Positions 87 to 18,341 of a stretch of 56,403 bases of DNA are shown one piece after another. Position 1 is the stretch's first letter, and every line of letters starts with the position of its first letter. Position numbers and translations under genes: made by a program. Source of the stretch: Bacteroidales bacterium (GTDB lineage Bacteria; Bacteroidota; Bacteroidia; Bacteroidales; VadinHA17); assembly GCA_027067975.1 (NCBI GenBank), contig JAMOUS010000060.1, positions 1 through 56,403 of the forward strand, read 5' to 3'. The notes under the pieces are model-generated. The model was not told where the DNA came from and did no database searches. It was given only the letters and a program-made list of their open reading frames with translations.

Positions 87-1712
87 ATGACCGGTAAAGA
101 ACTTATCTACAACGCCATACATCTGAAGCCTATTGAGCGCACCCCTTGGGTTCCTTTTGTGGGGGTCCACGGCGGCAAGCTCCTGGGAGTGGATGCCACC
201 ACTTACCTGCGGTCGGGGGATCTGATTTTCCAGGGTGTCTCCAAGGCCATTGAGATGTATGAACCCGACGGCATCCCGGTGGTGTTCGACCTCCAGGTGG
301 AGGCCGAGGTGTTGGGATGCGACCTAATGTGGGCCGACGACAATCCCCCTTCGGTGGCTTCCCATCCCTTAAGCGAGGGGAAACGTCTTGACGACCTGAA
401 GGTACCCACGCTCGATGACGGCCGCATCGGCATGATCATGGAGACGACGCGCCGCCTGCGGGAGGCACACCCTGACATCGCCCTCTACGGCTTAATCACC
501 GGCCCCTTCACGCTGGCCCTCCACCTCCTCGGCACCGACGTTTTCATCAAGATGATGGAAGACGAGGAATACGTCCACCGGGTCCTCGACTTCGGCAAGC
601 GGGTGAGTATCTTCATGGCCGACGAATACATCCGCCACGGTTGTGATGTGATCGCCCTGGTCGATCCCATGACCAGTCAGATCAGTCCCGAACAGTTCCG
701 GCAGTTCGTCACCAACCCCGCCACAGAAGTCTTCGAGTTCATCCGGCAACAGGGAGCCATGAGCTCGTTCTTTGTTTGCGGCTATGCACAGCAGAACATC
801 GAGGCAATGTGCGAGTGCAAACCCGACAACGTCTCCATCGACGAGAACATCCCCCTCGACTATGTGCGCGAGGTAGCCCTCTCCCGCGGAGTGAGTTTCG
901 GCGGCAACATGAAACTCACCGTCGTGCTGCTGATGGGATCACCCGAGGACTGTCAGGTACATGCGCTGGAGTGTATCGACCAGGCCGGCGACAAGGGTTT
1001 CATTCTGGCGCCGGGGTGCGACCTGCCTATGGACACCCCGCCCGAGAACCTGCAGGCGGTCACACGACTGGTGCACGACGACTACCAGCGGGAGGTGATC
1101 CGCACCCTCATGGAGAACCAACCCGACGAAGAGAAACTGCCCGACATGAGCGAATACGGACAGACCGACAAGGTGATCGTCGACATCATCACCCTCGCCT
1201 CCGAGTCGTGCGCCCCCTGCAAATACATGGTCGATGCCGTGAAAAACGTCGCTCCCGAGTTCGAAGGCATCCTCGAATGGCGGGAACATTCCATCAAGAA
1301 AATGGAAGCGGTCAACTTCATGAACGCCCTCATGGTCCGTAGCCTCCCCACCATCTGCATCGACGGCAAGATCGCCTTCACCTCCCAGATCCCTCCCCGC
1401 CACGAGCTGATCCAGGCCATACAGAACCGCATCAACGAAAAACTCAAGCTGAAGCTCAGCCGCAAACATCCCGAGATGCTCCTCTTCACCACCTCCAAAG
1501 AGGAAGAGGAAAAACTGCACGAGGTTGTCTCCGAGGCCATCACCGAACTGGGTGCCGACGTCGATATCCGTCACATCACCGACGAAAAGGTGATCCGCTC
1601 CTACGGGGTCCATAAAACCCCGGCCGTGATGACCGTCAGTTACAAACTGAAAAGCCAGGGACGCATCCCCTCGGTGGATGTGGTGAGGGAATGGATCAAA
1701 GAGGTGATGTAG
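87..1712 (+). CDS. URO-D/MtaA-type (uroporphyrinogen decarboxylase family) methyltransferase-like protein fused to two C-terminal thioredoxin-fold domains
   Basis: ORF 3..1712. The first plausible start is ATG 87 (MTGKELIYNAIHLKPIERTPWVPF...); the 28 upstream codons lie in AT-rich promoter-like DNA. The N-terminal ~340 aa resemble the URO-D family (LAPGCDLPMDTPPENL). A thioredoxin fold with CAPC follows (VIVDIITLASESCAPCKYMVDAV...LPTICIDGK), then a second Thioredoxin_3-like fold without cysteines (...VHKTPAVMTV...). Confidence 0.8.
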   Translation: MTGKELIYNAIHLKPIERTPWVPFVGVHGGKLLGVDATTYLRSGDLIFQGVSKAIEMYEPDGIPVVFDLQVEAEVLGCDLMWADDNPPSVASHPLSEGKRLDDLKVPTLDDGRIGMIMETTRRLREAHPDIALYGLITGPFTLALHLLGTDVFIKMMEDEEYVHRVLDFGKRVSIFMADEYIRHGCDVIALVDPMTSQISPEQFRQFVTNPATEVFEFIRQQGAMSSFFVCGYAQQNIEAMCECKPDNVSIDENIPLDYVREVALSRGVSFGGNMKLTVVLLMGSPEDCQVHALECIDQAGDKGFILAPGCDLPMDTPPENLQAVTRLVHDDYQREVIRTLMENQPDEEKLPDMSEYGQTDKVIVDIITLASESCAPCKYMVDAVKNVAPEFEGILEWREHSIKKMEAVNFMNALMVRSLPTICIDGKIAFTSQIPPRHELIQAIQNRINEKLKLKLSRKHPEMLLFTTSKEEEEKLHEVVSEAITELGADVDIRHITDEKVIRSYGVHKTPAVMTVSYKLKSQGRIPSVDVVREWIKEVM

Positions 1713-1728
1713 ATGGAAGGAGGGAGTT

Positions 1729-1941
1729 AATGAGTATGGAGTATGGAGTATGGAGTATCGAGTATCGAGTCAGTGAGTCCCAGCTTTCGCGAGGTGAAAC
1801 CGAAGCGAAAGATGTAGGACGAACTGACCCTGACCGGAACGAAGTGGAGCGTCAGGGTTACAAGAGAGTGCCTGGAGTGCCTCGAGTATTTGGAGTACTT
1901 GGAATATTTGAAGTTGGGAGTATGGAGTTCGGAGTTCGGAG
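1729..1941 (+). repeat. Mosaic intergenic repeat, locus A (heptamer run, two hairpins, 9-mer run, heptamer run)
   Basis: 1738-1770: ATGGAGT x3 and ATCGAGT x2. 1771-1781: CAGTGAGTCCC. Hairpin CTTTCGC(1784-1790)/GCGAAAG(1805-1811). Hairpin ACCCTGAC(1827-1834)/GTCAGGGT(1851-1858). 1866-1910: five 9-mers (GAGTGCCTG, GAGTGCCTC, GAGTATTTG, GAGTACTTG, GAATATTTG). 1911-1940: heptamers. The same modules recur at 13.6-14.3, 18.25, 37.1-37.7 and 43.1 kb. Confidence 0.9.
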
Positions 1942-1944
1942 CAT

Positions 1945-2886
1945 ATGAAGATTCCGTTCTACATTGTCACCGGTTTTTTAGGAGGCGGAAAGACCACCTT
2001 TCTCAAGCATTTTTTGCGCACCTTTTCCGGGAAATACCGCATTGGCGTGATCCAGAACGAGTTTGCTCCCGGGCAGGTGGACGGTGCGGAGTTGCGGCGC
2101 GAAGAGGAAGATTTCGAGCTGCTCGAGATCAACAAGGGGTCGGTCTTTTGTGTCTGTCTGCTCAACGACTTCACCCGTTCGCTGAAAAGTTTCATTGAGA
2201 AGTACCATCCCGACCTTCTCCTGTTGGAGGCTTCGGGGCTTGCCGATCCCATTGCCGTGGCCGAGGTGTTGCAGGGGCCGGAGCTCTTTCCCCTGCTGTA
2301 CCTTTCGTACATCTGGACGATCGTGGATGCGGAGCACTTCGGCAAGGTAGGCAGTATGGTCACCCGTGTGGAACGGCAGGTGCGCGTAGCCGACAAGGTG
2401 CTCATCAACAAGATCGACAAGCATCCCGGACCGCTCGACCCGCTCATTGCGAAAGTGCGCGAATGGAATCCTTTTGCCGCCATTGAGACGGTCACGTGGG
2501 CGCGTGCCGATCTGAACAATCTGGAAGAGCTGGCCGGTCATGTGCCGGTGGCCATGAAGAAAAAAGAGGAACACCGGCGTTTCGAACCGCTCAACCGTCC
2601 CGGCACAGGCACGGTTGCTCTCAAGACCACCTGGCCCATCCGCCGCGACCGTCTGGAAGCGTTCATCCGGGAGATGCTGCCTCTCAGCTACCGCATCAAA
2701 GGCACCGTAAAGCTCGACGACGGCACCTTCGTCAGCGTCCAGGTCGTCATGGGCGAGGTCGAATACCGCGACGCAGGCCACCTCATGCAGCCTACCGAGC
2801 TGATCGCCATCGGCCCGGGCATCACCCCCGCCACCTTCGGCCACCGCTTCCACGACTACCGCAAAGGGAAAGCCTCGCCCCACTAA
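1945..2886 (+). CDS. CobW/COG0523-family G3E P-loop GTPase (putative metallochaperone)
   Basis: 313-aa ORF. Walker A motif GFLGGGKTT sits at the N-terminus, with COG0523-like ...LLLEASGLADP... and NKID motifs. The usual CxCC metal motif reads FCVCLL, so the third Cys is missing. Confidence 0.85.
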   Translation: MKIPFYIVTGFLGGGKTTFLKHFLRTFSGKYRIGVIQNEFAPGQVDGAELRREEEDFELLEINKGSVFCVCLLNDFTRSLKSFIEKYHPDLLLLEASGLADPIAVAEVLQGPELFPLLYLSYIWTIVDAEHFGKVGSMVTRVERQVRVADKVLINKIDKHPGPLDPLIAKVREWNPFAAIETVTWARADLNNLEELAGHVPVAMKKKEEHRRFEPLNRPGTGTVALKTTWPIRRDRLEAFIREMLPLSYRIKGTVKLDDGTFVSVQVVMGEVEYRDAGHLMQPTELIAIGPGITPATFGHRFHDYRKGKASPH

Positions 2887-13604: not shown

Positions 13605-14160
13605 CAAGTGTCTCGAGCACTTCGAGTGCCTAAAGTTGGAAATTACAAGTGCCTAAAGTCAGTGACACCCGGATTCTGCAAGGCGAAGCCGCAGCGGAAT
13701 CCGCTGGTGGAACTGACCCTGACCGGAGCCGTAGGCGAAGCGTCAGGGTTACAAGAAAGTGCTTGGAGTACTTAAAGTGCTTAAAATTGCAAGTTACAAG
13801 TGACTAAAGTCAATGACACCCGGCTTTCGCGAAGCTTTAGCTGTAGCGAAAGCCGATGGTGGAACTGACCCTGACCGGAGCCGTAGGCGAAGCGTCAGGG
13901 TTACAAGAAAGTGCCTGGAGTACTTAAAGTGCCTAAAATTGCAAGTTACAAGTGACTAAAGTCAATGACACCCGGCTTTCGCGAAGCTTTAGCTGTAGCG
14001 AAAGCCGATGGTGGAATTGACCCTGACCGGAACGAAGTGGAGCGTCAGGGTTACAAAAAAGTGCCTGGAGTGCCTAGAGTTGAAAGTTACAAGTGCCTAA
14101 AGTCAGTGACACCCGCCTCGTGCGAGGCGTAGAAGAAGCGGAATCTGCCGGTGGGCCTGA
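13605..14160 (+). repeat. Tandem array of a ~151-bp structured unit (about 3.7 copies), locus B1
   Basis: Unit starts (AGTG[AC]CTAAAGTCA[AG]TGACACCCG) are at 13648, 13799, 13951 and 14092, preceded by a partial tail from ~13605. Each unit has hairpin 1 (e.g. CGGCTTTCGC...GCGAAAGCCG), hairpin 2 (ACCCTGAC...GTCAGGGT) and a 9-mer tail. Copies 2 and 3 are nearly identical over their first ~70 nt. Confidence 0.95.
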
Positions 14161-18223: not shown

Positions 18224-18253
18224 TTTCGTTAAAATTTATTGGTTAATAATTAG

Positions 18254-18331
18254 TTCTGAGTTATCGAGTATCGAGTATTGAGTATTGAGTATTGAGTATC
18301 GAGTATTGAGTATCGAGTCAGTGAGTCCCGG
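18254..18331 (+). repeat. Heptamer microsatellite block, locus C (8 phased AT[CT]GAGT units plus CAGTGAGTCCCG junction)
   Basis: 18263-18318 reads ATCGAGT ATCGAGT ATTGAGT ATTGAGT ATTGAGT ATCGAGT ATTGAGT ATCGAGT. It is flanked by GTTCTGAGTT (5') and CAGTGAGTCCCG (3'), the same edges as at loci A and B2. Confidence 0.95.
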
Positions 18332-18341
18332 ATTTCTTTTC

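Follow-up and report, generated by a model that had tools for sequence, protein, structure and literature searches.

A modular repeat with a conserved double-hairpin core occupies the spacer of a probable operon in Bacteroidales

The stretch of DNA analysed here (the window, 56,403 nt) is contig C60 of a draft Bacteroidales genome, designated G000, which comprises 2.79 Mb in 311 contigs at 55.8% G+C and encodes 28 Por_Secre_tail (type IX secretion) domains above the family cut-off, a Bacteroidota-like complement. Near the start of the window, a gene for a URO-D enzyme fused to thioredoxin folds (URO-D/Trx) is followed on the same strand by a gene for a COG0523 protein, and the two are separated by a spacer of 232 nt (1713-1944), which runs from the TAG stop codon at 1710-1712 to the ATG at 1945. 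The upstream gene has an alternative start call at position 3; the gene calls of an independent assembly give it a length of 569 aa. From left to right, the spacer is composed of a heptamer array (H), a two-hairpin core module (M), a 9-mer array (N) and a second heptamer array, giving the module order H-M-N-H (Table 1).

Table 1. Genes and sequence features at the URO-D/Trx–COG0523 junction (positions in the window).
Feature	Position	Strand	Evidence or detail
Upstream gene: URO-D (MtaA/CmuA-like) enzyme fused to Thioredoxin_3 folds	87..1712	+	Pfam URO-D E=3.4e-61, Thioredoxin_3 E=1e-17
Left flank ATGGAAGGAGGGAGTTAAT, purine-rich, stop codon to first heptamer	1713..1731	+	outside Tandem Repeats Finder arrays
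Heptamer array H1 (GAGTATG / GAGTATC, 5.6 units), sense	1732..1770	+	Tandem Repeats Finder score 64, 96% matches
Core module M, 93 nt, two hairpins, sense	1768..1860	+	nhmmer E=4.6e-23; covariance model 106.4 bits
Hairpin 1, extended 60-nt stem-loop	1769-1828	+	outer stem 1769-1780/1817-1828, inner stem 1781-1790/1805-1814
Hairpin 2	1827-1858	+	arms 1827-1834/1851-1858
9-mer array N (GAGTGCCTG / GAGTATTTG / GAGTACTTG ..., ~5.4 units)	1866..1914	+	Tandem Repeats Finder period 9, 1866-1887 and 1884-1914
Near-consensus Bacteroidota -7 box AATATTTG within array N	1903-1910	+	relaxed promoter match
Heptamer array H2 (AGTTGGG, AGTATGG, AGTTCGG x2), sense, G-rich	1912..1941	+	Tandem Repeats Finder period 7, 4.3 copies
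Downstream gene: COG0523 (CobW-type G3E GTPase)	1945..2886	+	Pfam cobW E=1.6e-33, CobW_C E=1.3e-5

The original prediction held that this gap is almost entirely made of repeat modules, each of which recurs in the window. The sequence itself, Tandem Repeats Finder and an inverted-repeat search bear out the former, and copies at 13.6, 18.3, 37.2 and 43.1 kb the latter; both hairpins it had named were recovered, with the inner arms of hairpin 1 and the arms of hairpin 2 as listed in Table 1. Several details need amending. The segment CAGTGAGTCCC, taken for a junction, in fact forms the 5' half of hairpin 1's outer stem, and this hairpin therefore takes in the whole of its 60 nt. Between the last repeat and the ATG lie 3 nt rather than 4. 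Of the three forward frames, all of which had been taken to be open, just one runs uninterrupted across the spacer and two contain stops; independent gene calls place nothing inside the spacer. An identical spacer is present in an independent 82-kb contig from an ENA assembly, which speaks against an assembly artefact.

This spacer belongs to a family of modular, non-coding repeats of an uncultured Bacteroidota genome, with lineage-specific 7-mers and 9-mers surrounding a conserved 93-nt core. Compared with its own genome, it yields 208 blastn HSPs, the best at 88% identity over 199 nt at C179. Iterated nhmmer recovers 91 copies of core M from G000 and a covariance model 75 matches; the copies are mutually ~75-88% alike, and two of the 91 lie inside called genes, as judged with our own, crude codon-usage caller (2294 genes, 90% coding). 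Of heptamer arrays with three or more AGTNNNG units, the genome contains 84, four of them inside genes, against ~0.3 expected by chance. Modules are combined differently from locus to locus: the 83 repeat-bearing gaps that we mapped include the orders H-M-N-H, H-M-N-M-N, H-M-N-M-N-M-M and M-N-M-N-M-N-M followed by h-F-H-F. Neighbouring core copies are direct tandem M-N units, and at 13606-14125 of the window the M-N pair forms a tandem unit of 152 nt.

Searches against described families returned nothing that would name the element. Rfam gave no match at gathering score in the whole window, and the sole match in 1650-2000 was at chance level (E=0.89). No RAYT (Y1 transposase, Pfam PF01797) was found in G000, which is 93% complete, by a search that was positive in 6 of 14 control genomes. 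Terminal inverted repeats are absent from 1700-1960, where solely internal hairpin arms occur and both ends are direct heptamer arrays. The 15-mer AGTATCGAGTCAGTG, searched against 596 Gb of genome contigs, produced single chance matches in unrelated phyla, the pattern being too short for that volume.

At the center of the family is the core, whose predicted fold is very stable on either strand: -38.6 kcal/mol for the sense RNA (z=-4.4, with none of 200 shuffles as good) and -36.1 kcal/mol for the antisense RNA (z=-4.9). The heptamers to its left are unstructured, the fold of 1713-1767 reaching -1.2 kcal/mol, a value that 199 of 200 shuffles equal or better. RNAalifold on 33 core copies from G000 gives 30 pairs, 14 of which show compensatory changes, such as GTCAGT...ACTGAC versus GTCAAT...ATTGAC, GAGTCC...GGACGA versus GACACC...GGTGGA and ACCCTGAC...GTCAGGGT versus ATCCCGAC...GTCGGGAT. 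Homologues of the core occur at lower copy number in 8 of 10 congeners, in five other genera of the same family (G014, G015, G016, G019, G024) and in one genome of another family; with a covariance model built from G000 copies, at most nine were found in any genome other than G000 and none in the congener G005, and these counts are lower bounds. Among 43 core copies from these other genomes, 92.6% of the cells are paired and 27 of the 30 pairs have changed on both sides, in an alignment that was fitted to the covariance model and so favours structure; none of 500 shuffles scored as high, and slid controls reached 30-39%. Two unpaired motifs are also kept across genera, namely AGTNAGTGAGAC at the 5' end and GTCGAAYT between the hairpins. 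The flanks of the core are a different matter: in other genomes they consist of short purine-rich tandem repeats of other sequence, e.g. AGGTTGA, AAGGCTA or AAAGATA, so that the mosaic architecture is conserved while the sequence of the short repeats is lineage-specific.

Judged by this pattern of compensatory change, the core structure is under selection and conserved across genera. Which strand is selected, and whether as RNA or as DNA, is a question on which the structure is silent, as both strands fold nearly equally well and the asymmetry between G-U and A-C cells (32:15, p=0.019) is driven by two columns of related copies. We therefore rejected the G-U excess as a sign of the transcribed strand; once the two columns are removed, the ratio is 16:15.

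The gene pair itself is conserved in relatives, and it is the state of the junction that varies. In other genera, the COG0523 ATG falls 22 nt within the upstream gene (G075), 2 nt separate the genes (G076) or the genes abut (G054). The congener G005 has a spacer of 48 nt that is unique in its genome; a metagenome scan with the COG0523 protein returned one locus only (contig L132), whose spacer is identical to that of G005. Another congener, G002, has 267 nt, partly made of G002-specific repeats, with the heptamer/core junction reversed (CTGACTCGATACTC). In G024, 295 nt of a repeat family of its own (39 copies) lie between the genes, which overlap in the congeners of G024. The overlap and abutment in other genera point to a translationally coupled operon as the ancestral state, and the comparison of orthologues thus shows the repeat copy to occupy what was ancestrally an overlapping or abutting, coupled gene pair. 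By the same comparison, the junction was filled at least twice independently, once in the genus of the window (g1) and once in G024, with three different states within g1 itself. Synonymous divergence (dS) among the three g1 genomes is ~1 and their spacers share no alignable flank; at such divergence flanks are not alignable, and the order of events within g1 is not polarisable.

This comparison also supports the original prediction that the element is a dispersed mosaic and no gene-specific leader: junctions differ among genomes, no unique leader is shared, and orthologous spacers lack the element or are different, while many copies exist elsewhere in the genome. The downstream gene has been maintained throughout. 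For COG0523, dN/dS is ~0.10 in every pair, against both congeneric orthologues, whether the spacer is short or filled. Purifying selection of this kind suggests that the gene is still needed and hence still expressed.

Core loci fall into 16 convergent, 15 co-directional and 6 divergent gaps, as compared with 302, 1393 and 288 such gaps genome-wide (chi-square p=7e-6). In G000, among cores no more than 60 nt downstream of the stop of a confidently called gene, 16 are in sense orientation and 2 antisense (p=0.0013). The same count, 16 sense to 2 antisense, was obtained in relatives, where 38 regions from other genomes were evaluated with a length-based ORF caller; eight of these 16 sense cases are non-independent, being copies in G015 on the stops of paralogous genes that end in ...NPxDxxRYE*, where the stop codon lies within the first 9 nt of the core. 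Pooled over both sets and leaving out this G015 family, stop-proximal cores are sense in 24 cases and antisense in 4 (p=1.8e-4). The copy studied here, which lies 55 nt after the URO-D/Trx stop in sense orientation, is a typical case: its orientation and position match the statistical norm of the family, sense and within 60 nt of the upstream stop. Together with the enrichment in convergent gaps, the sense bias just after stop codons lends support to the analogy with REP/BIME elements that the original prediction had drawn.

Heptamer arrays follow the opposite rule at the other end of genes. Within 120 nt of a start codon in G000, 16 arrays are antisense and 4 sense (p=0.012), and among solo arrays in co-directional spacers the ratio is 11 to 1 (p=0.006), so that in these spacers the mRNA-sense strand carries a G-poor repeat of the ACTCNAT type that nearly reaches the start codon. 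Measured against this rule, the sense, G-rich array that abuts the COG0523 ATG is unusual. The COG0523 leader (-30 to -1) is 43% G, placing it in the top 1.85% of 1622 genes, and the fold of the start region, at -9.4 kcal/mol, ranks at the 10.6th percentile. It is unlikely that the GGAG-rich heptamers act as a Shine-Dalgarno site, for G000 has no Shine-Dalgarno enrichment (15.7% of genes versus a background of 16.6%). Positions -14 to -11 before starts in this genome are 45-52% A, which, like the missing Shine-Dalgarno enrichment, is Bacteroidota-like.

Are the two genes still transcribed together? Hairpin 2 is followed by TTACAAGAG, and no terminator-like site (hairpin plus U-run) was found on the forward strand between 1 and 3600. 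Nor does the spacer contain a sigma-70-like site or an exact copy of the Bacteroidota -7 box TAnnTTTG; the exact box is absent upstream of the first gene as well, which makes its presence or absence weak evidence. The closest candidate, AATATTTG, differs from the box by one mismatch at the first position and lies 35-42 nt before the ATG, as against a genome median of 43 nt for TAnnTTTG boxes; the sequence has no -33 TTTG at the right spacing for it. RNA that is rich in G and poor in C is a poor loading site for Rho. With 83 G and 32 C, the sense RNA of the spacer would be such a poor Rho entry site. Given the former operon and a spacer that holds neither a terminator-like site nor an exact TAnnTTTG box, URO-D/Trx and COG0523 are most likely still co-transcribed, with the element inside a bicistronic mRNA. 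The operon proposed originally is thus supported by inference, both from the spacer and from the 22-nt overlap and 2-nt gap seen in other genera. Across the genome, canonical terminators are scarce within 400 nt past core-bearing 3' ends (1 of 15, versus 84 of 179 others; p=0.002); over whole gaps the difference is not significant (13 of 36 core-bearing versus 89 of 164, p=0.065).

How does the element compare with repeats described in other bacteria? With the REP/BIME elements of Enterobacteria and Pseudomonas, including the REPIN-RAYT systems, it shares a dispersed, extragenic, multi-copy organization as a mosaic of hairpin-forming motifs, enrichment at gene 3' ends and in convergent gaps, and locations that vary between relatives. 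REP elements likewise occur within operons, as in malE-malF and yjdM-yjdN, and there they make the upstream mRNA more stable and prevent part of the read-through (PMC5927463; bioRxiv 10.64898/2026.03.23.713779). The differences are nonetheless considerable: no RAYT was found here, the core is a 93-nt double hairpin whereas REPs are palindromes of 20-40 nt, M-N arrays are direct tandems in contrast to the inverted doublets of REP/BIME, the cores are ~75-88% alike and flanked by tandem repeats of 7 and 9 nt, and the bias toward a single orientation after stop codons is strong.

The BOX elements of Streptococcus pneumoniae (boxA-boxB(n)-boxC) are modular and intergenic, have a stable predicted structure and no transposase of their own, and have expanded in a restricted lineage. 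Ordered modules, a variable internal copy number and the lack of coding capacity are common to BOX and the present family, a likeness in build only. BOX elements belong to an unrelated phylum, have no flanking micro-repeat arrays and are not known to follow a stop-proximal orientation rule. Closer in taxonomy is the BrickBuilt MITE of Porphyromonas gingivalis, also a Bacteroidota, which is intergenic and contains short repeats arranged head to tail. It consists of leader and tail subunits, occurs in tens of copies that are always intergenic, is transcribed and affects transcription of its neighbours (PMC4596501). BrickBuilt is bounded by terminal inverted repeats, and its unit is 23 nt long; the present element has no such termini and units of 7 and 9 nt, and features a conserved two-hairpin core.

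For the heptamers, the nearest counterparts are the TAACTGA arrays known from Beggiatoaceae, Cyanobacteria and a few Bacteroidetes (PMC4679880) and the comparable STRR heptamers of cyanobacteria. These too are intergenic tandem heptamers, often a few nt upstream of starts and in a preferred orientation, in genomes where Shine-Dalgarno sites are little used; the candidate readers are S1, Csp and CsrA-type proteins. In the present family, the unit differs (AGTATCG, AGTATGG, AGTTCGG) and the arrays are joined to a structured core; the G-poor orientation is the usual one near starts in G000, whereas at our locus the G-rich strand is in the mRNA. By arrangement, the heptamer arrays are of the same kind as TAACTGA/STRR; by unit sequence, they form a different family. 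More generally, with no RAYT, inverted doublets, terminal inverted repeats or Rfam family, and with different units, the element does not appear to be a member of the REP/BIME, BOX, BrickBuilt or TAACTGA families. By analogy, REP/BIME would be its nearest functional counterpart, and in build it comes closest to BOX.

Taking these observations together, we consider it probable, if only just, that the element is a REP/BIME- or BOX-like 3'-end element within a bicistronic mRNA, acting on that mRNA as REP does. In the transcript, a very stable double hairpin would lie 55 nt past the URO-D/Trx stop, between unstructured purine-rich repeats. Insertion of the repeat would have abolished the translational coupling of URO-D/Trx and COG0523, and COG0523 would be forced to initiate independently, from an atypically G-rich leader. 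The double hairpin may then serve as a barrier to 3'-to-5' exonucleases, as a partial transcription stop, or as both, by analogy with the REPs of malE-malF and yjdM-yjdN: the malE-malF REP is an example of a protective 3' structure within an operon that blocks 3'-to-5' exonucleases (PMC5927463), and REP325 in the yjdMN operon is a dual terminator and stabiliser (bioRxiv 10.64898/2026.03.23.713779). In consequence, the upstream cistron would be favoured, either outlasting or outnumbering the downstream one.

The most serious rival, which we think rather unlikely while granting it real weight, is a DNA repeat, selfish or neutral, that has no role at the RNA level and whose orientation bias would only reflect tolerated insertions near gene ends and starts. 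Such a repeat would spread and grow by slippage, unequal recombination or an unidentified enzyme, and would persist where it does least harm. In three lineages this junction came to be filled by repeats unrelated to one another, as expected of opportunistic colonisation; in the same direction point the equal folding of both core strands with no robust G-U asymmetry, the very uneven copy number (75-91 copies in G000 as against nine or fewer in other genomes, and none found in G005) and the many copies at contig ends. Furthermore, the 5' end of the core contains stops (TAA/TAG/TGA in AGTNAGTGAG), so that one orientation of the core would truncate an invaded reading frame harmlessly. Truncation is irrelevant, however, at distances of +4 to +58 nt from stops, where the 16:2 sense bias is also found, and the conservation of the fold and of the unpaired motifs across genera through many compensatory changes would be hard to explain without selection. 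Moreover, G000 has no transposase of the REP-associated type.

An improbable alternative is an insulator joined to a promoter: the element would end the upstream transcript, and a promoter in the 9-mer module would drive COG0523 independently, as in BrickBuilt, segments of which have promoter activity (PMC4596501). The spacing of AATATTTG from the ATG, near the genome median, would fit a promoter, the shortage of canonical terminators within 400 nt past core-bearing gene ends would fit an element that ends the upstream transcript, and COG0523 is clearly maintained. Against this stand the mismatch at the first position of the candidate box and its missing -33 TTTG, as well as the lack of a hairpin plus U-run after the core; the exact box is moreover a weak guide, since the first gene has none upstream either. 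Finally, it is very improbable that the spacer is a gene-specific COG0523 leader (riboswitch or attenuator), that it encodes a small protein (ORF 1691-1948) or that it is an artefact of assembly: the position directly upstream of a metallochaperone-type gene, the one open frame and the fragmented draft would allow for them, but the leader is refuted by dozens of genomic copies in unrelated contexts, by their absence from orthologous junctions and by the lack of an Rfam family, the small protein by the lack of a Pfam family and of any independent gene call, and the artefact is contradicted by the identical spacer in the independent contig.

The composite reading, in which the element acts on the bicistronic mRNA as a REP-like 3'-end structure, can be taken one step further, into more speculative territory. 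The core may constitute an undescribed class of structured 3'-UTR RNA, present in several genera of one Bacteroidota family in sense orientation on or just past stop codons and read by a host factor, which may be an RNA-binding protein, a factor for termination or one that sets up a nuclease barrier, with the flanking arrays as single-strand protein-binding or spacer platforms. We put this forward tentatively, as a doubtful idea.

Repeats of the REP/BIME/BOX type have been well studied in Proteobacteria and Firmicutes and hardly at all in Bacteroidota, a phylum in which translation is initiated without Shine-Dalgarno pairing and less is known about the rules that govern mRNA ends. What is new here is the history of an operon junction, the conservation of the core across genera, the rule that stop-proximal cores are in sense and the opposite rule for start-proximal heptamers. 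The locus amounts to a natural experiment, with the same gene pair overlapping, 2 nt apart, 48 nt apart or 230-300 nt apart by means of three repeat families, and with the downstream COG0523 gene under the same constraint across these junction states. The compensatory conservation and the 16:2 sense bias in two independent genome sets make a role at the transcript level testable by simple reporters. If such a role is not confirmed, the family is still useful as a marker of rapid intergenic turnover and is a known cause of fragmented assemblies; if it is, the element would represent a new structured 3'-end element and a mechanism that uncouples the genes of an operon. Should the core indeed be a 3'-UTR class of its own, a cassette placed in an operon junction would turn a coupled pair into two separately tuned cistrons, which may be a general route by which operon stoichiometry evolves in bacteria that make no use of Shine-Dalgarno sites.

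The spacer between the URO-D/thioredoxin (Trx) gene and the COG0523 gene was also located in three relatives, the two congeners G002 and G005 and G024 from another genus of the family, and its content differs in each. In G005, the two short motifs within the spacer are possibly relics: AGTTCGG of the heptamer and CGGCTTTC of the core, the 93-nt two-hairpin module of the dispersed repeat. In the window itself, the 9-mer module contains AATATTTG, which lies 35-42 nt upstream of the COG0523 ATG and has one mismatch to the Bacteroidota -7 promoter box TAnnTTTG. When 1700-1960 is folded, the minimum-energy and the centroid structure both show base pairing between the left flank, which is purine-rich (GGAAGGAGGGAG), and COG0523 codons 2-5 (AAGAUUCCGUUC); this predicted pairing would loop out the entire element and draw the stop codon close to the start codon. 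On a longer independent contig covering the left end of the window (L131), the URO-D/Trx gene is adjoined by a divergent gene for a B12-binding-domain protein on the opposite strand; therefore, the cluster looks like a corrinoid-dependent methyltransferase system plus a COG0523 chaperone.

Coordinates of the spacers, repeat modules and neighbouring features (G000, genome of the window; G015, another genus of the family)
Feature	Location	Content
URO-D/Trx-COG0523 junction, G024	L004:2428-2722	295 nt from a 39-copy repeat family of G024 itself
URO-D/Trx-COG0523 junction, G002	L003:1230-1496	267 nt, other modules; heptamer/core junction reversed
URO-D/Trx-COG0523 junction, G005	L002:1447-1494	unique 48 nt; includes AGTTCGG and CGGCTTTC
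-7-like box	window 1903-1910	AATATTTG
Paired left flank	window 1718-1729	GGAAGGAGGGAG
Paired COG0523 codons	window 1949-1960	AAGAUUCCGUUC
B12-binding-domain gene	L131:1-214	upstream of window position 1
Extra-hairpin core variants, G000	C180:4442-4577; C229/C215 copies	
Stop-codon modules, G015	L155:2001-2081, L161:2001-2112, L176:2001-2077, L163:2001-2094	
Stop-codon modules, G015, further	L167:2001-2082, L168:2001-2085, L173:2001-2084, L142:2001-2096	
Heptamer-only spacer	window 18224-18341	
Heptamer-only spacers, G000	C82:11791-11884, C126:399-464, C162:5536-5638, C276:345-431, C302:12733-12853 and others	

Some core copies in G000 carry an additional hairpin (CCTGTCCCGACACAGAGTCGTCGGGG) between hairpins 1 and 2, and these variants of 118-135 nt suggest modular exchange at the hairpin level within the core. 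Core-like two-hairpin modules in G015 lie exactly over stop codons, with TAA or TGA inside the first 9 nt of the module. The genes concerned are diverged paralogues with the C-terminus ...NPxDxxRYE*, an ending that may resemble that of FtsX/MacB-type permeases; the module appears to move together with this gene family or to be kept by it.

Heptamers also occur alone in short co-directional spacers of G000, where they are oriented antisense rather than sense to transcription at a ratio of 11:1 (p=0.006). The mRNA strand would consist of G-poor ACUCNAU-type repeats running up to 2-43 nt from the next start codon. Across all called gene starts of G000, Shine-Dalgarno enrichment was not found (15.7% of genes versus 16.6% background), and A content peaks sharply at positions -14 to -11 upstream of start codons, the Bacteroidota-type initiation signature. 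The antisense heptamers may provide an unstructured leader that is tolerated or favoured in a genome without Shine-Dalgarno use; alternatively, they may serve as a C-rich Rho entry site.
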